A DNA stretch of 64,000 nucleotides from a virus (IMGVR_UViG_3300043416_000076:915-64914), one strand, 5' to 3'; counted from the stretch's first letter, positions 29,845-40,998 are shown. Notes: generated by a model from the sequence alone, not told the origin. A program made the numbers and translations.

Positions 29845-29876
29845 AATATAGGGGTAACTTTAGACTTTGTCAAGTC
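29845..29876 (-). promoter_or_regulatory. sigma70 promoter of the replication module with a palindromic operator over the -35
   Basis: TTGACA (29868-29873)-17 bp-TATATT (29845-29850); AGACTT-N4-AAGTCT overlaps the -35. Confidence 0.8.
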
Positions 29877-29904: not shown

Positions 29905-29933
29905 GAACATACCAACGCGGTGTTGGTTTGTTC
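29905..29933. repeat. Early-region palindrome, copy 1
   Basis: GAACATACCAAC-GCGGT-GTTGGTTTGTTC. Confidence 0.85.
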
Positions 29934-29937
29934 AGGC

Positions 29938-29964
29938 AAAAAAAGACCCGCACATAGGCGGGTC
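29938..29964 (-). terminator. Intrinsic terminator ending the early region
   Basis: GACCCGC/GCGGGTC stem with a 7-nt U-tract on the - strand. Confidence 0.8.
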
Positions 29965-29982
29965 AAAGGGAGCAATCAAAGG

Positions 29983-30840
29983 TTACATAAGAATCATGAA
30001 GTGTTTATCATTGTACCTGTAACCTACGTCACGCACAAGTTCGTCGTCTTGCATTAGCTGTAGCACTGCGATACGCTCTTGCCACGACTGGGGTAGACTT
30101 GCGTACTCAAGCGCCATGATGACATCATGTTCATCCCTGAAGATGTACTGCCCGTCCTTCTCAGCGATGACGGTTGTTTTATCGTTGCCGCGCAACATCT
30201 CAAAGTCAGTCGCTAGTTCGTACTCACCCATAGCTTGCGCATACGCATCAGATTCAAAGATCTCCCTCATGTGGTTGTTGATCTCATCGGGGATGGGTAT
30301 GTCGCGGACAACACAGTACGCCCACTTCTGTAGGTACACGCTGTCTTTGATAAGCCTCCTGTCTGCAATAGGTCTTCGCAAGGCTTGCGTGCACTGAATC
30401 ACATTGGATGTGACTGTGTCAACGGCCTTCTTCAAGAACTCGCTGTGATCCATACGGATGAACGACTTCTTCACCTTACGTGCGGCAATGTCCAGCTTCT
30501 CTGTTCTGGTTATGTTCTGCCCGCCACGGACAGTCTCGATGCGCCACGACTTGATCTCGTACAACGGCTTGTATGAATTACGTCTGTACCCACTGTCAAC
30601 AGATATCTGCCCGAGCATCTCGCCCTCCTCTCGCACAATGATAGTGCGCGTGTAGGTAAACCCATCCGGTGCTTTACCTGCGGAGTCATCATACTTGTAG
30701 CCTATCGCTCTGGTTTGAGAATCCTTATTGGTTGTGAAAGCCCATTTCGGATTGTTGAGCGCGAGCTTATCCACCAGTACCTTGAGGTACGGGTCGATCA
30801 GCCTGTCTGCCGGTAGTCTTATGTTTGCAAAGTTACTCAT
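29983..30840 (-). CDS. Early hypothetical protein
   Basis: 285-aa ORF directly after the DUF3150-like gene. Confidence 0.7.
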   Translation of the reverse strand: MSNFANIRLPADRLIDPYLKVLVDKLALNNPKWAFTTNKDSQTRAIGYKYDDSAGKAPDGFTYTRTIIVREEGEMLGQISVDSGYRRNSYKPLYEIKSWRIETVRGGQNITRTEKLDIAARKVKKSFIRMDHSEFLKKAVDTVTSNVIQCTQALRRPIADRRLIKDSVYLQKWAYCVVRDIPIPDEINNHMREIFESDAYAQAMGEYELATDFEMLRGNDKTTVIAEKDGQYIFRDEHDVIMALEYASLPQSWQERIAVLQLMQDDELVRDVGYRYNDKHFMILM

Positions 30841-30844
30841 GCGT

Positions 30845-31717
30845 TCACCATTGGAATTTGTTGAGGATATCGTCTACGCTGTGCTTCAACTCAGCGCGTG
30901 CGCTAGGTATCTTGCGTAGGTCTTCCGCGTCGATGCCATTGATTGCTTTCTCTAGCATACGTCGAGCTTCTTCAAGCGCTGGGTCTTTCATCACGTTGAG
31001 TACGGACAACAGACCACATAACTCTAGAGCGTTGTTGACCAGACTATCGCGAAAGATATTGCGTTTGCCATCTTCCTTGTCAGTCAGGGTCTCACTCATC
31101 CGTGCCAACATCTTGTGCAGTCTGTCCCACGGATCACGCATAGCCTCGATCATCTTGTTGTTAAACATCTTGTCGTACTGCTCAGCCAAGTCCTGACGTA
31201 CACGTTCCTCGCATTGGATGCGGAAGTCACCCTTCTCTGGGACGGGGAGAAAGTTGAACTCAAACTTGAAGCGACGGGGCAAAGATGCGGCATCGGGAAA
31301 CTCTGACGCATCGAAGTACTTACCGAGCTTGAACGCCTGCGCACTAACCAACGTCGGGTAAGCTAGTATGAAGTCATTGACTAGCGAGTTGAAGTTGGAT
31401 TCCATAGTACCGAGCTGTTCACGATAGCTGAAGAAGTTCTCCATCGGGAGTAAGCCGATACCCTTCATCCACGGCAGGGTCTGCGTACCATTCCACGCAC
31501 GACACTTAGCCGCGTACTTCTCTATCTTGTTGAGATGATCACTGCCCGCCATGAGGTACTTGTACACAGAGCTTGCGTCTTGGTCAGCTTCCTTAGCTGT
31601 GTTCAGGTCAGCAGTGGTTTCCTTGTCACGCTTACGCGCAGTCCACGTACTGATACGGAGTTCGACAAGCATAGCCATAGAGGCCAGCGAGATTGAGGGA
31701 GATTCAAAAGTTTGCAT
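30845..31717 (-). CDS. DUF3150-like protein
   Basis: LVELRISTWTARKRD N-terminus; helical C-terminus (RDPW.RL...IFRDSL); ATG 31717. Confidence 0.65.
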   Translation of the reverse strand: MQTFESPSISLASMAMLVELRISTWTARKRDKETTADLNTAKEADQDASSVYKYLMAGSDHLNKIEKYAAKCRAWNGTQTLPWMKGIGLLPMENFFSYREQLGTMESNFNSLVNDFILAYPTLVSAQAFKLGKYFDASEFPDAASLPRRFKFEFNFLPVPEKGDFRIQCEERVRQDLAEQYDKMFNNKMIEAMRDPWDRLHKMLARMSETLTDKEDGKRNIFRDSLVNNALELCGLLSVLNVMKDPALEEARRMLEKAINGIDAEDLRKIPSARAELKHSVDDILNKFQW

Positions 31718-31745
31718 TTGGTTTCCAATATAGGTTGATTGACAC

Positions 31746-31774
31746 GAACATACCAACGGGATGTTGGTTTGTTC
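31746..31774. repeat. Early-region palindrome, copy 2
   Basis: GAACATACCAAC-GGGAT-GTTGGTTTGTTC. Confidence 0.85.
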
Positions 31775-32819
31775 AAAGTAACTCCGTGAATACGTTTACG
31801 TATTCCGAGTTCTGCTTGGTTGGGATTTCGCCCGCCCCAAGTGGCTCTTTCACAAAGCACTCGTCAAAGTGCAAGTGCAAAATGATTTCTTTGAGATACT
31901 CCATAGCGTCTGCACGGGTGAGCGTAATAGACCACATGAACTCATCAGCAACACGCACACGTCCTCGTTCGCCTTGCTGTCTAGTCATCACATAAAGCGC
32001 GGTTACCCAGTTGTCGCTGAGTGGGCCTGTGACCCAGTCCATAAACAACCTACAAGCTTCCGTGTGAAAGCCTTGTCTATTGCCACGCCATTGGCCTTTC
32101 CCGCCATGCGGTAAGTGCTCACGGTTACGCCCGATCTGCCATCGGTCAGGGGTGTTTGCATCTGCGGGTCTCATGACCCAGTCAGCCGACCACTTCTCAA
32201 ACCCTTTAATGGACATGAGACCAAGCTCTTTGTACAAAGCATCCATCGCGGCATCCATCTCGTCGACAGGATCTTTCGGGACGTTGTCGATCGACTGCAC
32301 CAACTCCATCCATTCGAGGAACGGCTCGCAGTCTCTGAGATACTTCTTCTCCACGCCACGCTTCTTTCTGATTGCGTACTCCATCGGAACGTCAATCAGT
32401 TCTATAGAATGCAGCGTGTCCTTGAACTTAAAGCTCTTGCCTTGGGGTAACAGGAACCTCTGTTCTTTGACAACCAAGCACATGCGCCCTCTGTCCCAGT
32501 CAAAACCTACGCTACTGGGTACGTAGTTCTGAATGTTCCCAACCACAAACGGTGAGTGGTAATGTGGAGAGAACACTTCGAATGTGTTGTCCGATTTCCA
32601 CACTACCAACGGCTTGCCGTAGTAGAGCAGTTGAACTGTGTCCTCGTCAGGCATAGCGATGCTCGCCATGTGGTGCTTCTTGCGCTCACCAAGTGGGACA
32701 GCGCCCTTCGCTTGCTTACTGCGAATAGGTGTAGTTGATTTGAATTTCTGTACCGCAGCCTCGAATGATTCAAGGCACGGCACGTTTGCTGTGTTGTATC
32801 CGCTGTATCCGTATCCCAT
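31773..32819 (-). CDS. Early hypothetical protein
   Basis: Long ORF with RBS AAGGAAG. Confidence 0.7.
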   Translation of the reverse strand: MGYGYSGYNTANVPCLESFEAAVQKFKSTTPIRSKQAKGAVPLGERKKHHMASIAMPDEDTVQLLYYGKPLVVWKSDNTFEVFSPHYHSPFVVGNIQNYVPSSVGFDWDRGRMCLVVKEQRFLLPQGKSFKFKDTLHSIELIDVPMEYAIRKKRGVEKKYLRDCEPFLEWMELVQSIDNVPKDPVDEMDAAMDALYKELGLMSIKGFEKWSADWVMRPADANTPDRWQIGRNREHLPHGGKGQWRGNRQGFHTEACRLFMDWVTGPLSDNWVTALYVMTRQQGERGRVRVADEFMWSITLTRADAMEYLKEIILHLHFDECFVKEPLGAGEIPTKQNSEYVNVFTELL

Positions 32820-32980
32820 CACATCTTCCTTTCAATAAAGAGGGAAATTAAGTGGCGAACCACCTGTCCGTTCGTAGGCTCAAAGCCCATCAGTCCTACC
32901 AGTTGTTCTCTTACGGTCTGCAAGAGATCAAAGGTTTCTTTGTTAAGGGCAACCGAGTACCCCGTTTTTGAATTGGTCAT
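32819..32980 (-). CDS. 53-aa putative DNA-binding protein (not in ORF track)
   Basis: Translated by hand: MTNSKTGYSVALNKETFDLLQTVREQLVGLMGFEPTNGQVVRHLISLLFERKM; RHH-like pattern. Confidence 0.55.
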   Translation of the reverse strand: MTNSKTGYSVALNKETFDLLQTVREQLVGLMGFEPTNGQVVRHLISLFIERKM

Positions 32981-33234
32981 CGTTTCTTCTCCGCAAGAAT
33001 CTTCATGTTGGTATCAATATCCAACTGCATAATCCCAGTCATTGGCGCAATGGTTGCCGCCTTCGGGTCAGGCTCGGCTATGACTGTGTTGTTTCTGTTT
33101 TCGTGCCCGTTACCAAGCCATGATGTAGTAATGCGTGACGCACCACACAAGACCCGCGAGATATCCATAGCCTCTTCCATGCCCAACAAAAACTTTTGAT
33201 CCCCAATAAAAAGAATCACTTGATTTTCATCCAT
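32977..33234 (-). CDS. Hypothetical protein
   Basis: ATG 33234 with RBS GGAGG. Confidence 0.55.
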   Translation of the reverse strand: MDENQVILFIGDQKFLLGMEEAMDISRVLCGASRITTSWLGNGHENRNNTVIAEPDPKAATIAPMTGIMQLDIDTNMKILAEKKR

Positions 33235-33664
33235 ACTGTTTTCCTCCAAGAACTACAAACCAACCCAATAAGGGGCTATCGTTTTTACATTTCACTGCGT
33301 ACGGGAAACCTTCTTCCAGTAATCGCAGCAGCTTGCTAGGGAATAGATACTTATTGGATGAGTCCTCACCCAAGTCATCTACTTCTCCCACCATCCAACG
33401 ATGAAGTTTCTCCAGACCATCAGGGTTCTTCAAGTCAAGCGGAGTAACTCCAGCGTTGTGCATCGCGCCCATCACCTCAACATGGTGGCCGAAACCTTCC
33501 GCGAATTCGACATCTGCGTCGACCCCTTGGATAAGTCTCATGCCCGCTGGGTTAAAGCGCGCCTCCAACCACGTGCAGTCTGTGTTCACCCCAATGGAGC
33601 GATACCACTTCTTGCATACGATCAGTGGATCAGCATCAGTTAGTAATGACGAGTTTTTGTCCAT
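33227..33664 (-). CDS. Hypothetical protein
   Basis: ATG 33664; overlaps both neighbours. Confidence 0.5.
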   Translation of the reverse strand: MDKNSSLLTDADPLIVCKKWYRSIGVNTDCTWLEARFNPAGMRLIQGVDADVEFAEGFGHHVEVMGAMHNAGVTPLDLKNPDGLEKLHRWMVGEVDDLGEDSSNKYLFPSKLLRLLEEGFPYAVKCKNDSPLLGWFVVLGGKQYG

Positions 33665-34934
33665 TCGGAACCTCGTAGTTATCGTTACCGATGATGCACC
33701 ACAGAGTAGGTTGCGTGATCGCAGACCACTTACCCTTGTTGGTGTGCATGTAACCATCACTCAGCATGATGATCGCGTCGGGCTTCAACTGCTTCTCAAG
33801 AATCAGATCAACCACAACGTCAGGGTTCGTACCACCACCGCCTTTGGGATTGGTGCGGTGCACAATGTCCTTGGTAGAACCTGTAAAGATTTCATGCGCC
33901 TGTACCTCTGCGTCCCAGTACACGATGTCGATGCGGTCGATGCCAACTGACTTGACCAAGCCATTCATCTCGGAGAGAAAGTCCGTGAGCAACTGCCCTT
34001 CTACAGAACCGGATGTGTCCATCGCCAGCAACAGATACTTCATGCGCTTGCCAAGGATGCTCGGCAGGATGATGTCTTGCCACAAGAAGTTCTTGTGCGC
34101 CCTGCGCCATGAGATAGAGTCCCTGTCCTTGATGTTGTTCCGGGTGAATCTTTTCAGCACCTCTCGCCAGTCAACCTTGGGGTTGAGAAGCTCGCCGATC
34201 TCGCGTGGTGTCTTGCCGCCAAACTTGCCCGCATAGATACCACCTTGGCGTATGGCCTGCTCGATCTCTTGGGTGAGTTGCTTCTTCTCTTCCTCGGACA
34301 TCTCTTGCGCACCATCCCAGTCATGGGCATCGAAGCCTTCCTTGTCACCGAACTTACCAACACTTGGTTGGTTTGTTCCGTCCTTGGCTTTGCCTTTGCC
34401 TGACCCGTCGATAGGATTGCCGTTGCCTTCCTCGCCTTCTTCACCTTTACCACCCTTGCACTTCTTCATGAGAATGTCGAAGACTTGCTTGGTGTCCATG
34501 CCACGATAAGCAGGGTCGAGTAAACCATCAAGCTCACCTGTTTCTTTAGAACGGGGAAACGCGATGAATTCCTCATCGGGATCCATGTCTACCAACTGGA
34601 TGTTGATCACGTAGTCGCACGCCGCGCCCGCTACCTTGGGGTTGATCTCTTTCAACGCTTTCCACGTTGTCATGTGGCGATAGCACTTGTGCATGTTCTC
34701 GTGCATGACAAGAAACGCCAACTCTTTGTCGGTCAATGAGTCAGCGAATGCTCTGCCGTACCCCGCGTCACGACCGTTCGTGTACGCTGTTACAGGTCGT
34801 TCATCTATCGTCGTAGACCCGACCATGAACAAGCCCGCGAAGAACGCAAACTTCTGGTTCCTCATCAAGCTCACATGTACCAACTCGATTCGTTTCTCGG
34901 CTGATAACTTACTCTTCACAATTACTGTACTCAT
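33636..34934 (-). CDS. Metallopeptidase-like + VWA domain protein (DUF2201-like)
   Basis: HENMH (HExxH), G/K-rich linker, MIDAS DTSGS, GGGGT..., LSDG. Confidence 0.85.
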   Translation of the reverse strand: MSTVIVKSKLSAEKRIELVHVSLMRNQKFAFFAGLFMVGSTTIDERPVTAYTNGRDAGYGRAFADSLTDKELAFLVMHENMHKCYRHMTTWKALKEINPKVAGAACDYVINIQLVDMDPDEEFIAFPRSKETGELDGLLDPAYRGMDTKQVFDILMKKCKGGKGEEGEEGNGNPIDGSGKGKAKDGTNQPSVGKFGDKEGFDAHDWDGAQEMSEEEKKQLTQEIEQAIRQGGIYAGKFGGKTPREIGELLNPKVDWREVLKRFTRNNIKDRDSISWRRAHKNFLWQDIILPSILGKRMKYLLLAMDTSGSVEGQLLTDFLSEMNGLVKSVGIDRIDIVYWDAEVQAHEIFTGSTKDIVHRTNPKGGGGTNPDVVVDLILEKQLKPDAIIMLSDGYMHTNKGKWSAITQPTLWCIIGNDNYEVPNGQKLVITN

Positions 34935-35119
34935 GATTGCTGTTCCTTTCTAAATTGTTCAAACTTTGCGACGACATCATCACGCACTTCTTTGTTCTCA
35001 AGAAGAACCTTGATGAATACATCCGCGCCTCTCGCCTCGCTCTTGTACTTGAGCGCATAGCCCGTAGCTATGATCGCCCACGCAAACAATACGATTTCTA
35101 TGGTCGATACTTCAATCAT
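34931..35119 (-). CDS. Small membrane protein
   Basis: N-terminal TM segment; RBS GGAGG. Confidence 0.55.
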   Translation of the reverse strand: MIEVSTIEIVLFAWAIIATGYALKYKSEARGADVFIKVLLENKEVRDDVVAKFEQFRKEQQS

Positions 35120-35276
35120 TTGGGTGTCCTCCTGTTTCTTTGACATCAAGAATCCACATCTCCAAGAGATGGGCTTCCTCGTTTAAGTCAAGCATGCGCA
35201 AGTGTTGAGCAAGCTGCATGCCGGTTTGATAGACCTTCTCGACGGTCTGTTCTCGGGTGGTCTCTGGTATCGTCAT
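35112..35276 (-). CDS. 54-aa hypothetical protein (not in ORF track)
   Basis: Translated by hand (MTIPETTREQ...GGHPND); RBS GGAGAG. Confidence 0.5.
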   Translation of the reverse strand: MTIPETTREQTVEKVYQTGMQLAQHLRMLDLNEEAHLLEMWILDVKETGGHPND

Positions 35277-35285
35277 GGTCTCTCC

Positions 35286-35540
35286 CTAGTTGGGTTTATC
35301 GGTGTCAAGCTCGACCATGTGCAACGCTTGCATGTCGTACACGTTAGAAACGGTATCCATCAAATCATCCTTGTCTATATCAAACTCAATGGTCATGCCG
35401 CAGAGCATATTGACAAGTACGTTCCAGACCATAGCTTTAGTCAACTCCGAGGCATTGAATAGTGCCCCAATGGCTTTCTGCACCGCACGTATACGCGCTT
35501 CTTCAATGTCATCAGCTCGTCTAACTTTTTCAATACTCAT
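35286..35540 (-). CDS. Hypothetical protein
   Basis: ATGA overlap, RBS AGGA. Confidence 0.55.
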   Translation of the reverse strand: MSIEKVRRADDIEEARIRAVQKAIGALFNASELTKAMVWNVLVNMLCGMTIEFDIDKDDLMDTVSNVYDMQALHMVELDTDKPN

Positions 35541-35722
35541 TTTGATTCCTTTAATAATTGTTTAAAGTCTTGCTCTATTCTTTCAAGTTTCCACTTAAAC
35601 TCTTCGAGCATCTCTCGTTTGTTTTCATACCCCATGTCTTTGTAAGACTCGCCTCTAAGTTGGTCGCACACATCAAAATAAATTTCTTGGATGTGCGTTA
35701 AGGTGTTTAACTCAATACTCAT
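35537..35722 (-). CDS. Hypothetical protein
   Basis: ATGA overlap, RBS AGGAG. Confidence 0.55.
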   Translation of the reverse strand: MSIELNTLTHIQEIYFDVCDQLRGESYKDMGYENKREMLEEFKWKLERIEQDFKQLLKESK

Positions 35723-35961
35723 TTTGCTCTCCTGATAAATTTACCTTCCAAGTCAAACTCGTAGGTAGGAAACTGCTGTTCCAACTGCTTGGCCATGCGA
35801 GTCATGGTTGAAGTGGCTTGCAATACCAGACCGCGAGCCTCGAGTACCTCGCCCGCTGTGGCTTTGTTGTTGTAGACCAGCTTGTGGACATGATCCTGCA
35901 TACGCTTGTACGTTGCAACCATGCCACGCCACGCCAATTTTGATTCTTCCAATGTCATCAT
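35719..35961 (-). CDS. Hypothetical protein
   Basis: ATG 35961 with RBS GGGGAG. Confidence 0.55.
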   Translation of the reverse strand: MMTLEESKLAWRGMVATYKRMQDHVHKLVYNNKATAGEVLEARGLVLQATSTMTRMAKQLEQQFPTYEFDLEGKFIRRAK

Positions 35962-36116
35962 GATTTCTCCCCTGTTGTTGGTGAACATTCCAACACCGTG
36001 TTGGTTTGTTCCTCGTCTACTACCACACTAATGATGCGAACGCCTTCAAAGATCTCGACAATCTCGTAGATCGCGCCCGCTCTGTCTAACGCATCGTAAA
36101 GTTCTGATGGTGTCAT
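35958..36116 (-). CDS. 52-aa hypothetical protein (not in ORF track)
   Basis: Translated by hand (MTPSELYDALD...GEKS); ATGA overlaps on both sides. Confidence 0.5.
   Translation of the reverse strand: MTPSELYDALDRAGAIYEIVEIFEGVRIISVVVDEEQTNTVLECSPTTGEKS
35983..36011. repeat. Early-region palindrome, copy 3
   Basis: GAACATTCCAAC-ACCGT-GTTGGTTTGTTC. Confidence 0.8.
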
Positions 36117-36286
36117 ACCTCATCCCCCTTGATTTCAACCATGCGCAACACACCCTCGGGTGCGGTTGCAACCACTGCGTCATACTGATCCCATGCCTGA
36201 CACCCATGACACTCGGCATCATGCGTGGGGCATCGCTCGCCCCAATAGAACAACATCGCTTCGTGTATTGCATTTCGTTCGTTCAT
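36113..36286 (-). CDS. 57-aa Cys-containing protein (not in ORF track)
   Basis: Translated by hand; WGERCP......C..C.AW; RBS AAGGA. Confidence 0.55.
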   Translation of the reverse strand: MNERNAIHEAMLFYWGERCPTHDAECHGCQAWDQYDAVVATAPEGVLRMVEIKGDEV

Positions 36287-36468
36287 TTCGTTTCCTTTCT
36301 GGATGACGCAAAAAACCCCAACACCATTTCGTATTCGTCGGGATACGCGTTTCTCATGTCAACCATCAACTTGACAAAAGCGTAATCGTTCTGCACCTCT
36401 TTCCTAAAAATGACAAGGCACTCGATTACATACATCCATGCAACTATTGCGTCTGTGTTCATGATCAA
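36283..36468 (-). CDS. Hypothetical protein
   Basis: Overlaps the AAA stop and the next start. Confidence 0.5.
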   Translation of the reverse strand: MIMNTDAIVAWMYVIECLVIFRKEVQNDYAFVKLMVDMRNAYPDEYEMVLGFFASSRKETK

Positions 36469-37544
36469 CCTTTCAATCCGGCAAACATGTACTGGTTCTC
36501 ACGCGCCCATGTAACGAACGAGGGGTGAGACATGACCCATGCTTTCTTGACAGGGATCTCGAGGATCTGGTTGATAAAGACAGCCTGTGTTTCTTTGGGC
36601 ATACGCTTGAGGTAGCGCATCCATGTTGCGAACGTCTCGCGGGTAGAGACAGCCACGGCCTTGAACGCCAAGATGCATTGAGCCGCTGGGCTTGTCGGTA
36701 TAGGGGTCGTATCAGGACTGGAGAGGATCGTTTCAGTCATGGGCAACTGATCGGACAGGGAGATGTACGCCTGCAAGTCCCGCGATGCAGGCCTACCGAT
36801 CGTGCCGTCGAGTGCCGCGATCAACGAATTCTCTGATATGTTGCGACGCACATTGATCCAATGCGATGCCTTGTACGCAGTACGGGGACAGAAGAACGCT
36901 TCCTGCGATGAGTCAGTCGGCTGATAGATGTACGTATTCTCTTTCTGCCCGCCATCCAAGTACGAAGCCATGCAATGCGGGTATTCCTTAACCCACGCTT
37001 GCATCTCAGGTGCTACGCCGTTGTTGCCCGCCCAGACCAACCACTCAGTCGCACTCGGTTTCATGTAGTTGATCCACGTCTCGCGGCTACGGGTATGAGC
37101 CTTGACATGATCACCCACATTGTCCGAACCCAAGTTGCCCGTCGTGAAGACAAGGGTCTCGGGGTGCAACTCATACTCGCCTTGTCTGCGCTCATGCAGT
37201 AGTGGGTGCAGGGTGTTGCGCACATAGTCATCAGTCTTTGTCCACTCGTCGATCATGATGACAAGGGGTTCGCCTGTGTGCAAACCATAACGCGCTGCGG
37301 GATAAAAATCCAAGGTACGAGTCGTGTGGTTGGGGATTGGCATACCGGACTGGCCGACATCGGTGTTGGGGCCGTCGATGTAGATGCCCTTGAATCCGGT
37401 GCGTTTGATGATCTCTTTGTGCATGGCAGTCTTACCAACTCCGGGTTCTCCAGTAAGGTGTACTGCATTCTCGCCCGCGTTGAGGATGAGGTCGACGGTC
37501 TCTGTGAAGTTGAGCCGACGGACAAATGATATTTCTCTTGACAT
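36465..37544 (-). CDS. AAA+ ATPase (MoxR/CobS-like)
   Basis: GEPGVGKT Walker A, VIMIDE Walker B, TTGN sensor 1. Confidence 0.88.
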   Translation of the reverse strand: MSREISFVRRLNFTETVDLILNAGENAVHLTGEPGVGKTAMHKEIIKRTGFKGIYIDGPNTDVGQSGMPIPNHTTRTLDFYPAARYGLHTGEPLVIMIDEWTKTDDYVRNTLHPLLHERRQGEYELHPETLVFTTGNLGSDNVGDHVKAHTRSRETWINYMKPSATEWLVWAGNNGVAPEMQAWVKEYPHCMASYLDGGQKENTYIYQPTDSSQEAFFCPRTAYKASHWINVRRNISENSLIAALDGTIGRPASRDLQAYISLSDQLPMTETILSSPDTTPIPTSPAAQCILAFKAVAVSTRETFATWMRYLKRMPKETQAVFINQILEIPVKKAWVMSHPSFVTWARENQYMFAGLKG

Positions 37545-37574
37545 TTTGATTTCCTTGATAAGAAAGAGTTATAA

Positions 37575-37604
37575 GAACATACCAACAGGGGTGTTGGTTA
37601 GTTC
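37575..37604. repeat. Early-region palindrome, copy 4
   Basis: GAACATACCAAC-AGGGGT-GTTGGTTAGTTC. Confidence 0.8.
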
Positions 37605-37879
37605 GATCGGGTGTTCTTCTGATTCGTATCCAACAGAACCTGCGGGGCAGCTTCGGGAGTTACGAGCATGTACGGCCCCTTGCCGTACGTCTGCACCACG
37701 CACCAAGATGCGCGATCAGCGACTGCGGCTTCTTGCCCGCAGTGTAGGCAGAGTGTGTAGCCAATGGCCCAACGCTCTGCATGGACGTCATCCCCGCATA
37801 GGGTGCATGACTTCCAGTCGAAACGATCATCGACGTGGCTGCCGTGATCGTCATTCAATTCTGTAGAATATGTAGTCAC
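37598..37879 (-). CDS. Zinc-finger protein
   Basis: CTLCG...R...GY.LCLHCG. Confidence 0.65.
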   Translation of the reverse strand: MTTYSTELNDDHGSHVDDRFDWKSCTLCGDDVHAERWAIGYTLCLHCGQEAAVADRASWCVVQTYGKGPYMLVTPEAAPQVLLDTNQKNTRSN

Positions 37880-38073
37880 AGGATGTTGTAGCCTTTGAGG
37901 TAGCGCATCTGCTCGAGGTCTTGGGCAAACTCGACGATGGTCAAACCGTAGTGTTCGTCGTCATGGTCGAAGAACTCATGAGACCCGTCGAGATCCATGT
38001 CTGGATCGACGGTGTTGGTTGCAAGGTAGTGTGAGTGCTGTAAGGCATCCCACTTGGTGTCTGTTGTACGCAT
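37876..38073 (-). CDS. Acidic hypothetical protein
   Basis: ATG 38073 with RBS GGAG. Confidence 0.55.
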   Translation of the reverse strand: MRTTDTKWDALQHSHYLATNTVDPDMDLDGSHEFFDHDDEHYGLTIVEFAQDLEQMRYLKGYNIL

Positions 38074-38105
38074 GAAGCATCTCCAATAAAGGACTGAAAG
38101 AACCC

Positions 38106-38135
38106 GAACAAACCAACAGGGTTGTTGGTATGTCC
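38106..38135. repeat. Early-region palindrome, copy 5 (flipped orientation)
   Basis: GAACAAACCAAC-AGGGTT-GTTGGTATGTCC. Confidence 0.8.
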
Positions 38136-38192
38136 GGACGGGCATTTAGAAGCGGTGCTGTTGTCATCACTCACCAATCTATCTAAAGATAT

Positions 38193-38221
38193 ATTGTAAC
38201 ACAAATTAAGTCATTTGTCAA
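38193..38221 (-). promoter_or_regulatory. Strong sigma70 early promoter
   Basis: TTGACA (38216-38221)-17 bp-TACAAT (38193-38198) with extended -10 TG. Confidence 0.85.
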
Positions 38222-38255
38222 TACCCAGTTCGTGTTTATAGACCCATAGTTCCTG

Positions 38256-38921
38256 TTATTCAGAATTCCGTTCCGACTTTACCTTGCGTTGCTGAGATAT
38301 GTGAGCAATCATCTTGTCGATACCAAATTCGATGTCCTCCCACGATTCGAGCGGGGTGTCGTCCTTGGGTTCTGGCTTTGGTTCCTCACGTAGCTTGATT
38401 GTCAGGACGGGCGGGCCGTCTTCGCTCGCCATGCGAATCTCTTTCCTCTTTGGAATGGCGAAACCTTTCTGTTTGAGGATTCCCTCGGTGTCATAGCCCG
38501 CCAACGATGCACTGTCCATGAGCATCTTGATGTGATAAGGGTTCTTCGGGCGCATCTCAATCAACTCCTCATCGGGCGGGGCGATCAGATGACGACTGGA
38601 TTCTTGCTCAGGGAGTAACGAATTGGGCTGGCCAGATGCAAACCGCTGAACACGGTACATCTTGGATTCGCAGTGATGGTATGGATTGACGCACCACTTT
38701 GTACCGCATAGGCTGAGCAAGCGGGGGCCAGCGGGCGGGAACCGGCAAATGGTGAACAGGATGCGCAAGACGGCGTTGGTGTTGAACTTGCCCGCCAAGG
38801 GGGAATTGGGTGAGAGTTGGGGTAAAGAGCATGAAGACTTGGGCCAAACGTAGCAGAGGTTCTTGACCTCGCAGTTGTCCAAAAGGTTGTCGGCGTTGTT
38901 GTACTTTGCGGTTCTAGTCAT
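38256..38921 (-). CDS. HNH / His-Me finger-like protein, possibly degenerate
   Basis: C...W at the N-terminus and LCGTKWCVNPYH. Confidence 0.5.
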   Translation of the reverse strand: MTRTAKYNNADNLLDNCEVKNLCYVWPKSSCSLPQLSPNSPLAGKFNTNAVLRILFTICRFPPAGPRLLSLCGTKWCVNPYHHCESKMYRVQRFASGQPNSLLPEQESSRHLIAPPDEELIEMRPKNPYHIKMLMDSASLAGYDTEGILKQKGFAIPKRKEIRMASEDGPPVLTIKLREEPKPEPKDDTPLESWEDIEFGIDKMIAHISQQRKVKSERNSE

Positions 38922-38970
38922 GATTTTTCCTTTCGCGGTGTTTTACACCATATATTAAATATCCGTCGCT

Positions 38971-38998
38971 ACTATATCATATCGGGCGTTGATGTCAA
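38971..38998 (-). promoter_or_regulatory. sigma70-like promoter
   Basis: TTGACA (38993-38998)-16 bp-TATAGT (38971-38976) with extended -10 TG. Confidence 0.6.
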
Positions 38999-39031
38999 TG
39001 AATTCGTGTGCTAGTTTTGTAAAGATAGAAA

Positions 39032-39182
39032 ATATATAACGTTGTTCCTGAAATTGACATAGTACAAACGGGAGAAAGGGCGAGGGGGGCCAAACACACC
39101 ATTCTCAACTTTTTCTATGTTGGGGGAGAGGATTCCTAGACCCGCTCTATACTATGTCAATTTCAGGAACAACGTTATATAT
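39032..39182. repeat. Perfect 33-bp inverted repeat (39032-39064 / 39150-39182) with 85-bp spacer
   Basis: ATATATAACGTTGTTCCTGAAATTGACATAGTA and its exact reverse complement. Confidence 0.9.
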
Positions 39183-39479
39183 ATTATATTATATTATTAT
39201 TATTATAGAGAGAGAGCTATACGATTCGGGCCTTTGCGCTCTTGCGGGCTGTGCGATAGGATAGAGTTATGAAGGATATATAATATAAGATGTAGTTATC
39301 TCGATAGGAAAACTAAGCCGATTCTACAAAACTTAAACCTATTTGGTGCATTTCGTGTGGTTTGGCTGTGCTTAGCCTGCGGCATCTATATAGTTGTGTG
39401 TGCAATGCAACATGAGCAATGCCCGCCTTACACTAGGCGAGCGGGTCAAGCGGGCGGCGTTAGACATAAAAGTAATAAA

Positions 39480-39508
39480 GAACAAACCAACAACGCGTTG
39501 GTATGTTC
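39480..39508. repeat. Early-region palindrome, copy 6
   Basis: GAACAAACCAAC-AACGC-GTTGGTATGTTC. Confidence 0.85.
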
Positions 39509-39538
39509 GCTTTGCCCGCAATGCAATGCACTTCGGGG

Positions 39539-39683
39539 CTACCGCGTTACTACCGGTGACTGGTATCTAACGATACGGGCGAGACGGGCACGAACACCAC
39601 GCCAGCATGGAGAACACCGCCCGCTTGGGACTACCGCGTTACTACAACATTCTGTTCCACAGAATGGGCTACCGCGTTACTAC
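39539..39683 (+). repeat. Three 15-bp direct repeats CTACCGCGTTACTAC
   Basis: Exact copies at 39539, 39631 and 39669. Confidence 0.85.
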
Positions 39684-39726
39684 CATAGTGACTGGCATCA
39701 CGGCGGGCCGCGCCATCGCGCAGGCC

Positions 39727-39751
39727 AAAAAAAATGGGGGCCGAAGCCCCC
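39727..39751 (-). terminator. Intrinsic terminator (UUCG hairpin)
   Basis: GGGGGC-TTCG-GCCCCC followed by an 8-nt U-tract on the - strand. Confidence 0.85.
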
Positions 39752-39756
39752 AAGGT

Positions 39757-39957
39757 TTACATCAAGCCCAATTTTTTCCGTCGGGCAATTTCATCATAAA
39801 CTTTGCCATACTCTCGCATGGTGCAACCCTTTATAGTTAAACTATAAAAATGAGAAACCAAGTACTCATTAGAAAACAAACGAACATTAAAAAACGGATT
39901 CATAAAAAACTCCCAAAAGTTAATCCATACATTCGTAGCTACGGATTTCCCAGTCAA
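39757..39957 (-). CDS. Possible small AT-rich ORF (start uncertain)
   Basis: Lies between the 2TM gene and the terminator; composition is atypical. Confidence 0.3.
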   Translation of the reverse strand: MTGKSVATNVWINFWEFFMNPFFNVRLFSNEYLVSHFYSLTIKGCTMREYGKVYDEIARRKKLGLM

Positions 39958-40108
39958 TCAGGAAAGCCAGCCCAATAAACGTGCCGGTAAAAACAAGGGT
40001 TTCCACCAACTCGATTTTGCCAAACCAACCCAAGGCCACAGACACGCCCGCCATCAGGAAAGAAAGAAACATAACAATGGTCATAAGTTTACGCATGAAA
40101 GACTCCAA
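39920..40108 (-). CDS. Small two-TM membrane protein (early)
   Basis: Two hydrophobic segments. Confidence 0.55.
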   Translation of the reverse strand: MESFMRKLMTIVMFLSFLMAGVSVALGWFGKIELVETLVFTGTFIGLAFLIDWEIRSYECMD

Positions 40109-40151
40109 AAGAAAGAATAGAAAAGATGGGCGCTGTCACCGCCCACCCAGA

Positions 40152-40931
40152 TTACTTCGCCTTCGACATGGCCACGATGCCAGCAGTCAGCATCTCGACC
40201 GACTCGACAGACCCAGCCTTCGCCCAGTCAGACGCGAGCTTTTTCAGCGCGTCGTGCAACTGTTTGATATCGCCCTGCAATTTAGCGACTTCAGGCTTAG
40301 CCCGCTCGGCCAACTGCTTTGTGATCGCAGTAGCTTCAGCCATCGACTTAAGGTCGCCCTTAGCAACCAATTCGGCTTTCAACTCGATCAATTCACCGTC
40401 ACCCTTGCCCGCGAACTTCGCCGCTTCCTTTGCCCGCTTCGCGGCCATACGCTCAGCATCAGCAGACTTTGCCTTCGGACTCTGCCAACCGAGAGCACGC
40501 AAACGGTTAGTCTGTCTTTCCCATTGACGCTCAGCCGCGTCGGTAGTAGGCGCACCCTCGTCGAAGTACTTAGCAATCGCCCATGTCCGGACTTGCAAGT
40601 ACTCAGGATAAGCAATCGGCACGAAGACCATAACGGGCTTGTTATCCTTCAACACGGGTTGACCCTCAATATCGAGTTTGGCCACGCGGGCTTTGATCGA
40701 TTTACCATCGACCACTTCCCACGCCGTCAACCAATCCAACAGCAGGGCATCCGCCTGTTGCACTTGCTCTTCGCCCTTCTTCATGAGCTTCTCGCCATGA
40801 GCAGTAGAGACAAAGATTTCTTCGAGAGAGGCTTGCGCCTCAACCAAGGAACGACCTGCGACCATCTCGACCGCAGAACCAATAGCGCTTTGAACAGGCG
40901 CAACGACTGTTTGTGTGGCTTTGTTTGCCAT
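40152..40931 (-). CDS. First early gene, A/K-rich helical protein
   Basis: ATG 40931 with RBS GGAG; strong codon periodicity. Confidence 0.75.
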   Translation of the reverse strand: MANKATQTVVAPVQSAIGSAVEMVAGRSLVEAQASLEEIFVSTAHGEKLMKKGEEQVQQADALLLDWLTAWEVVDGKSIKARVAKLDIEGQPVLKDNKPVMVFVPIAYPEYLQVRTWAIAKYFDEGAPTTDAAERQWERQTNRLRALGWQSPKAKSADAERMAAKRAKEAAKFAGKGDGELIELKAELVAKGDLKSMAEATAITKQLAERAKPEVAKLQGDIKQLHDALKKLASDWAKAGSVESVEMLTAGIVAMSKAK

Positions 40932-40968
40932 GATGTATTTCTCCAATAAAGAAACGAGCAAGACGCTC

Positions 40969-40998
40969 GAACAAACCAACGATTTTGTTGGTATGTTC
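40969..40998. repeat. Early-region palindrome, copy 7
   Basis: GAACAAACCAAC-GATTTT-GTTGGTATGTTC. Confidence 0.85.

Follow-up and report, generated by a model that had tools for sequence, protein, structure and literature searches.

Eight copies of a bipartite near-palindrome in the early gene block of a freshwater podovirus: a candidate operator array

The closest described system to the element reported here is the operator/stoperator array of the Cluster A mycobacteriophages, with the repressors L5 gp71, Bxb1 gp69 and that of TipsytheTRex. Cluster A stoperators occur as many sites in short intergenic spaces, where the phage repressor is thought to halt the elongating host RNA polymerase (PMC9283540, PMC6550527). 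Our analysis of a 64,000-nucleotide (nt) stretch of DNA from an uncultured freshwater phage (bases 915-64914 of the 64,914-bp viral record IMGVR_UViG_3300043416_000076, hereafter the window) revealed a 29-30-bp near-palindrome that is present in eight copies, all within positions 29905-40998, with zero expected by chance. Like the Cluster A sites, it is one short site in many copies, located mostly in short intergenic spaces within transcription units and near promoters. Cluster A sites co-evolve with the phage's own binding protein; here, all copies change in concert between clades, and g1, a candidate binder encoded by the first early gene, tracks the site type. In contrast, the Cluster A site is an asymmetric 13-mer recognised by a monomeric two-domain repressor, whereas the present site is a near-palindrome with two equivalent bipartite halves. 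Cluster A sites are oriented with transcription, whereas the polarity of the sites described here flips within a block of co-directional minus-strand genes. Finally, Cluster A sites are distributed genome-wide in temperate phages, whereas these are confined to the early block of a phage in which the searches made detected no lysogeny genes. Systems of this kind have been described in other phages; the form taken here, symmetric, bipartite and restricted to the early block, is new.

Other described arrays share some of these properties. Junction palindromes that change in step across a lineage are also found as the KorB operators of plasmid RK2, as repeats of 17 bp in Cluster O mycobacteriophages and as the conserved inverted repeats of phiC31, and a palindrome that lies at gene junctions and changes in this manner implies a dedicated dimeric binder. 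Those sites have other sequences and are shorter (12-17 bp), and their known binders are ParB/KorB or helix-turn-helix proteins. Nuclear factor I (NFI) binds TTGGC-N5-GCCAA, and the inner blocks of the present site share its geometry, a 5-bp inverted repeat around a 5-bp spacer (CCAAC-N5-GTTGG).

An exact search for GAACAWACCAAC-N5/6-GTTGGTWTGTTC returned four matches (29905, 31746, 39480 and 40969), while 100 dinucleotide shuffles returned none. The remaining copies, at 34350-34378, 35983, 37575 and 38106, carry one arm mismatch each. Half-sites with at most one mismatch were found 17 times, compared with 0.87 expected. When the search was extended to the full 64,914-bp record, only the same eight copies were recovered, and the reversed control pattern gave no match. 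The block that contains them (29.9-41 kb) is made up of small genes of unknown function together with genes for a MoxR-type AAA ATPase, a DUF2201 metallopeptidase/VWA protein and a DUF3150 protein. It belongs to a run of minus-strand genes extending from approximately 15.5 to 41 kb, in which the replication genes (DNA polymerase, exonuclease, primase-helicase and helicase) lie below 29.9 kb, and the terminase, portal and virion genes are encoded on the plus strand from 41.4 kb onwards. In the prokaryote genomes (596 Gb), the exact pattern was matched once, in Acinetobacter, by a perfect terminator-like palindrome whose flanks show no similarity; given this single unrelated match, the repeat is not a host-genome repeat. 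DNA nearly identical to the window was not found among GenBank phages.

A first-pass annotation, made from the window alone, had listed seven copies restricted to the early region, with spacers of 5 or 6 nt, and had placed most of them shortly upstream of minus-strand gene starts. All seven coordinates were reproduced by our pattern search, as was the restriction to the early region; the count itself had to be raised to eight by the copy at 34350-34378, which lies in the DUF2201/VWA gene. The spacer is indeed variable within the window, where five copies have one of 5 nt and the other three one of 6 nt. Five copies end 21 to 37 nt before a minus-strand ATG that is preceded by a Shine-Dalgarno sequence (Table 1). 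The copy at 35983, formerly assigned to the interior of a small open reading frame, is better read as intergenic, because it falls between a 75-aa gene that ends at 36046 and an 80-aa gene that starts at 35961 and has a GGGGAG ribosome-binding site. Altogether, six copies occupy intergenic or leader positions, another lies within a gene and one more sits behind a terminator.

The phage belongs to a freshwater podovirus lineage whose terminase links it to cultured SAR11 phages and cyanophages. Lake phage DSL-LC04, Pelagibacter phages HTVC027P and HTVC023P, and phages of Planktothrix and Synechococcus have terminases with 48-56% identity to that of the window. Seven other IMG/VR contigs harbor the exact pattern in DNA that is 77-97% identical to the window, with the arms kept and the spacers varying. 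Using the AAA ATPase as a probe, we collected 49 related loci (protein identity 99-54%), and nearly all of them contain the same element type. Sites of this type occupy the same eight or so slots in ~45 related viral contigs. The arms differ by clade and read GAACAWACCAAC (window), GAACAAASCGAC, GAACWWATCGAA, GAAC...CCGAC, GGAAWWACCCT or GGAA/GGAC/GGAG...TCGAC. An anchored scan, in which pairing was demanded only at arm positions 1-3 and 9-12, detected 253 sites in the window and the 49 loci, as opposed to 3 in the shuffled and 14 in the reversed controls. The sites fall into approximately eight slots whose distances from the ATPase start are conserved. In particular, the slot of site 5 was found throughout the family, a site ~65-90 nt before the g1 match is near-universal among relatives, and the terminator-site-promoter order seen at site 1 recurs in loci L029, L039, L049 and L063. 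In two complete relatives (63.6 and 64.8 kb), the sites are likewise gathered in a single block of ~10 kb. The element is kept among the relatives and confined to one early block, and as a cis element it is firmly established.

Within a single genome, the copies have common outer and inner blocks, whereas between clades both arms of all copies change together, with CCAAC, SCGAC, TCGAA, CCCTT or TCGAC as the inner block and GAAC versus GGAA as the outer one. Such a concerted change of all copies is what a single trans-acting reader predicts. The slot within the DUF2201 gene is kept in most clades, each with its own site type; it is read there in two frames and encodes unrelated peptides (for example, GTNQPSVGKF, EQSDGSSDSS and GNDRQGVDGS). 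Because the intragenic slot persists across two reading frames and unrelated peptides, selection at this slot acts on the nucleotides.

Closer inspection of 160 non-redundant family sites revealed how each arm is built. Positions 1-3 and 9-12 are nearly fixed per genome, and at positions 4 and 8 the two arms change together from clade to clade; the general half-site can be written as GRAM-WWW-YCGAC(A). The outer block is GAAC in the window and GGAA in other clades, and the inner block is CCAAC in the window and mostly YCGAC elsewhere. Positions 5-7 are A/T-rich, and the two arms pair there in 58, 52 and 83 of the 160 sites, compared with ~66, ~60 and ~87 expected from the independent compositions of the arms; pairing at chance level means that a continuous stem is not selected for. 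Of 184 family sites, 171 have a 5-bp spacer and the other 13 a 6-bp one; the spacer mostly begins with A and ends with T, its centre is free, and the inner block often extends one pair into it.

In all eight copies of the window, arm position 6 and its partner carry the same base, a homo-mismatch that the first-pass annotation had recorded for the typical copies and had taken for a fixed structural feature. Across the family, the arms at positions 5-7 pair no more than independence predicts, and because they vary independently, the apparent fixed mismatch is the window clade's version of an unread triplet. The sequence comparison indicates that this A/T triplet is most likely not read base-specifically. 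Within the window, seven of the eight copies combine one AAA half with one ATA-type half, which is only marginally non-random (binomial estimate of ~0.03). Selection for the mismatch itself was considered and set aside, given that pairing is near independence and that perfect palindromes are only marginally depleted (3 of 253, with ~9 expected).

We propose, with moderate confidence, that the sites are double-stranded DNA binding sites of one phage-encoded, two-fold symmetric, sequence-specific protein and together form an operator array over the early block. Protein binding, the identity of the binder and a repressive effect are what we infer. The candidate protein would be made early and would occupy all the sites, and g1, as the first early gene product and one with a site in its own leader, would be the best candidate. 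By this means, the phage could coordinately control how the host RNA polymerase transcribes the early genes, most likely through a stoperator-like block of the elongating enzyme, and bridging between sites would be possible too. The sites lie 30-50 nt downstream of early promoters, in the gap from a stop codon to the ribosome-binding site that follows, in one case inside a gene, and in one case just past the terminator that closes the block.

Several features favor recognition of the duplex. The stems are conserved in sequence while the loops are free, the arms of the triplet are independent of each other and the spacer is near-fixed. Compensatory changes are absent within a genome, and all copies differ together between clades. 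Site 1 lies behind a strong terminator, where an RNA element would rarely be transcribed, and the intragenic slot is kept even though RNA cleavage there would destroy the mRNA. The first-pass annotation had described an unexplained network of cis elements, with stoperator-like operators among the options, and had argued that variable spacing and a fixed mismatch fit a hairpin better than a rigid dimer site. The network proved to be real and conserved, and the operator option fits it best; the preference for a hairpin fell, since the spacer is nearly always 5 bp, the mismatch is not conserved and the loops are free. A single site type on every early transcription unit offers a concrete handle on gene timing in phages without their own RNA polymerase. 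Multi-site elongation control has to date been investigated chiefly in temperate actinophages; if the proposed binding is true, lytic phages that infect abundant aquatic bacteria would use it as well.

To look for the binder, we compared ten conserved early proteins, encoded within 20 kb around the ATPase gene, across the loci. The distance between g1 proteins correlated with the distance between site types (Spearman coefficient of 0.77, and partial coefficient of 0.68 when controlling for ATPase distance), a correlation that comes largely from the deep GAAC/GGAA split and was obtained on genomes that are phylogenetically non-independent; partial correlations of the other early proteins with site type did not exceed 0.38. 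In one informative trio, two genomes of like site type have g1 proteins that are 69% identical, and for two genomes of unlike type the value is 46%, whereas the ATPase and five of the other early proteins compared show the reverse order. By co-variation, g1 is hence the best candidate for the site-binding factor, which is a lead and not proof. The protein is mostly helical and rich in Lys, Ala and Glu; it had no family or name match and no fold match in the PDB or among viral structures, and homologues of g1, g4 and g18 were not found in GenBank phages. An insertion of ~35 residues (~70-105), predicted to form a small beta domain, is present in g1 of the window clade and a few relatives and is missing from most of the family. 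A candidate residue switch in g1, in which R/K before an invariant Pro becomes Ser as G10 of the site becomes A, fits the window clade and L067.

A second candidate binder, to be viewed with due reserve, is g4, whose gene comes first behind the strongest early promoter. It has an N-terminal zinc domain with invariant ligands (C23, C72, C77 and H82) in a C-x4-C-x-N-P-x-H motif (C-x4-C-V-N-P-Y-H in the window), and its AlphaFold model reaches a predicted local distance difference test score (pLDDT) of ~90 over residues 10-145. Comparison of the model with known DNA-binding folds (PDB 9xvd, 5nm9, 6fzs and 1a73) gave weak likeness only: to Smad MH1 (Foldseek root mean square deviation of 2.7 Å over 76 columns, probability of 0.15; VIA Z of 3.1), to the NFI homodimer on DNA (Z of 3.3) and to I-PpoI (Z of 2.3), with Foldseek probabilities of ~0.12-0.15 overall, and nothing ties g4 to the sites. 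The position that we take to be the catalytic His of I-PpoI is not conserved in g4. The N-terminal domain of g4 would represent a phage case of a degraded DNA-binding domain of the His-Me-finger type. All three matches fall into the His-Me finger group, of which MH1 is a member whose nuclease fold no longer catalyses but still binds DNA; a 2017 classification lists MH1 from eukaryotes only (PMC5714182). The hint of a DNA-binding-like fold comes without co-variation with the site type (Spearman coefficient of 0.01, partial coefficient of -0.06), and L033 and L027 have the same site type and clearly different g4 proteins. The middle segment of g4 gave a non-significant match to the RNA polymerase subunit RPB6/omega (E value of 0.36). 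The small ribbon-helix-helix-like protein g18, which has no Pfam match, is conserved in 39 relatives with an invariant GF-x-PT-x-GQ core. It was rejected as the determinant of specificity, because the g18 proteins of L026 and L027 are 96% identical, yet the sites of these two loci read CCGAC and TCGAA, respectively.

The sites are also polar. On the plus strand, T occupies position 6 in the first five copies (29905-37575) and A in the last three (38106-40998), so the switch between 37604 and 38106 that the first-pass annotation had pointed out is real, and it is conserved in relatives. Expressed on the sense strand, the triplets are T-rich upstream of the ATPase gene (mean of +1.7) and A-rich downstream of it (mean of -2.0), with the same direction in 21 of 22 representative genomes, and the better-conserved half of the site tends to be turned towards the ATPase region. 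Local strand composition accounts for little of the polarity (rho of 0.27); stop codons in the left-arm triplet, present in 35 of 184 sites, account for part of it.

A number of observations weigh against the operator-array proposal. The conserved polarity switch is not predicted by a symmetric dimer, and the 6-bp spacer of three window copies should be disfavoured by a rigid one. Every copy can, according to folding predictions, also form an RNA hairpin (-9 to -13 kcal/mol, with a family mean of -11.2), and does so at positions typical of leader RNA elements. A roadblock within the DUF2201 gene would truncate the mRNA of that very gene. As for the candidate proteins, g1, a putative binder, lacks a recognisable DNA-binding domain or known fold; the g1 correlation carries the two limits given above; the residue switch in g1 is contradicted by L076, which has Thr and CGAC sites, and is a weak lead only; and g4, the protein with a DNA-binding-like fold, does not co-vary with the site type.

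The same positions and foldings would be accounted for if the sites were RNA stem-loops in the polycistronic early transcripts, acting as stability barriers, processing sites or couplers of translation ahead of ribosome-binding sites. The five copies that precede start codons, the three that follow promoters and the predicted hairpins all agree with this explanation, and T7 early mRNAs are a precedent for intercistronic processing stems. We nevertheless consider it unlikely, for a stem that is kept in sequence around a free loop is the reverse of the usual protein-recognised RNA hairpin, the copies of a genome show no compensatory changes and pair at chance at positions 5-7, and all of them differ in concert between clades. 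The coding-region slot, where cleavage destroys the mRNA, and the location of site 1 and its orthologues behind a strong terminator speak against it too, and Rfam covariance models gave no match at the sites up to an E value of 1. T7-type RNase III sites are intercistronic and comprise roughly two helical turns of double-stranded RNA interrupted by an internal loop, whereas here the stem has at most 12 bp, a length below that of a classical RNase III substrate, and there are intragenic and post-terminator copies. Hairpins extruded from the DNA itself, or cruciforms, could instead serve an injected or early protein, either as promoters like those on which the virion RNA polymerase of phage N4 acts or to signal stepwise DNA entry. 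The inner block, with the frequent A...T closing pair, would in many copies give a 3-nt loop on a stem of 5-7 bp, which is the size of the N4 early promoter hairpins; in N4, too, small inverted repeats are confined to the early region of a podovirus, and the AAA ATPase/VWA module is shared with N4-like phages, whose ATPase homologues are 22-24% identical to that of the window, and the polarity could mark one strand. Even so, we regard this alternative as very improbable. Neither a virion RNA polymerase nor any other phage RNA polymerase was found by PHROGs and Pfam searches of all proteins longer than ~450 aa, including the 2294-aa ejection protein, although a very divergent enzyme could escape them, and the early block is already served by good, near-consensus sigma-70-type, host-type promoters. 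Unlike in N4, the central three loop bases are free and the eight copies are dispersed, being intragenic, post-terminator and of both polarities within one co-directional block. Moreover, the outer 4-bp block, which past a 3x3 internal loop would add little to such a hairpin, is strictly conserved.

The location at gene junctions would also be expected of recombination substrates at the boundaries of gene cassettes, as in the T4-type promoter-early stem-loops (PeSL), or of recombinase core sites, which the 12-5-12 layout resembles. Gene content between some sites differs among relatives, and the stretch upstream of site 4 has been replaced in two of them. However, homology ends within 15 bp of a site in 5 of 326 cases, compared with 13 expected at random, and this lack of enrichment of breakpoints counts against a role as cassette junctions. 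In contrast to PeSL cassettes, the promoter lies outside the repeat unit and accompanies only approximately 3 of the 8 copies, the differences in spacer between copies would block recombination among them, and the searches made detected no recombinase or integrase. We therefore give this explanation hardly any credence.

Going beyond the operator array proposed above, a more speculative arrangement appears rather improbable to us: rather than merely a series of brakes, the array could be a polar, mirror-arranged scaffold whose centre, near the ATPase gene, the better-conserved half-sites tend to face. All of its sites would be bound and bridged by g1, a protein whose fold has no known relative, folding the early block into one nucleoprotein body that is switched off or shielded as a unit. 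If true, g1 would found a new family among the phage proteins that organise genomes, and its bipartite site would be of a new type.

Table 1. Positions of the near-palindromic sites, transcription signals and selected genes in the window
Feature	Position	Strand	Context
Site 1	29905..29933		Between terminator 29964-29945 and promoter 29873-29845; centre at ~-81 from the inferred start
Site 2	31746..31774		Left arm overlaps TGA stop of 349-aa gene; ends 28 nt before DUF3150 ATG
Site 3	34350..34378		In-frame, in low-complexity linker of 432-aa DUF2201 metallopeptidase/VWA gene
Site 4	35983..36011		Intergenic; 21 nt before ATG at 35961
Site 5	37575..37604		TAA stop of zinc-ribbon gene in left arm (GAAC-TAA); 30 nt before AAA ATPase ATG
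Site 6	38106..38135		Leader, ~+51 to +80 after promoter 38221-38193; ends 32 nt before ATG 38073
Site 7	39480..39508		Within the non-coding control region (0.8 kb); both terminator 39752-39735 and three GTAGTAACGCGGTAG repeats precede it on the minus strand
Site 8	40969..40998		Ends 37 nt before g1 ATG; downstream of possible extended -10 at 41040-41032
Sigma-70-like promoter	29845..29873	-	TTGACA-17-TATATT; start of replication module, just past site 1
Sigma-70-like promoter	38193..38221	-	TTGACA-17-TACAAT with TG; upstream of site 6
Sigma-70-like promoter	38971..38998	-	TTGACA-16-TATAGT with TG; drives g4
Intrinsic terminator	29945..29964	-	Closes early block; 11 nt before site 1
Strong intrinsic terminator	39735..39752	-	After first early transcription unit
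Terminator	40148-40124	-	
g18	32819..32980	-	53 aa; ribbon-helix-helix-like; invariant core
MoxR-type AAA ATPase gene	36465..37544	-	Anchor for fetching relatives; site polarity changes around it
g4	38256..38921	-	221 aa; first gene after strongest early promoter; N-terminal zinc domain
g1	40152..40931	-	259 aa; first gene of leftward early block

Some further features of the early block were observed in the course of this work. On the minus strand at 39539-39683, between the strong terminator and site 7, there are three exact copies of GTAGTAACGCGGTAG, with zero expected, and two of the three lie inside a longer repeat that starts with CCAGTCAC. The 0.8-kb non-coding region that contains these copies, a 33-bp inverted repeat and an AT-rich tract may be an origin or a control region. 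In the early promoters of relatives, a common -10 element is fused to a small hairpin (TATAAT-CTAC-TTTA-GTAG); promoters of this type were located in L026 (7119 and 7517), L027 (9566), L033 (8377 and 9567) and L040 (8719), as well as at 38193-38221 in the window, and each of them is followed by a palindromic site after 30-60 nt.

The module of AAA ATPase, DUF2201 metallopeptidase/VWA and DUF3150 genes (30845-37544, minus strand) is also found in the cyanophage Pag-Yong1. This Planktothrix phage (L086 in our set, OL906435.1) is a cultured distant relative that has the terminase and the ATPase/DUF3150/VWA module in common with the window, and it could serve as a tractable system for the dispersed palindromes of the lineage. 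Its genome contains 37 copies of GGTTCA-N3-TGAACC with at most one mismatch, whereas the control pattern gave none. These palindromes are distributed genome-wide, are densest in the early block (15 copies in 11 kb) and often directly follow a stop codon.

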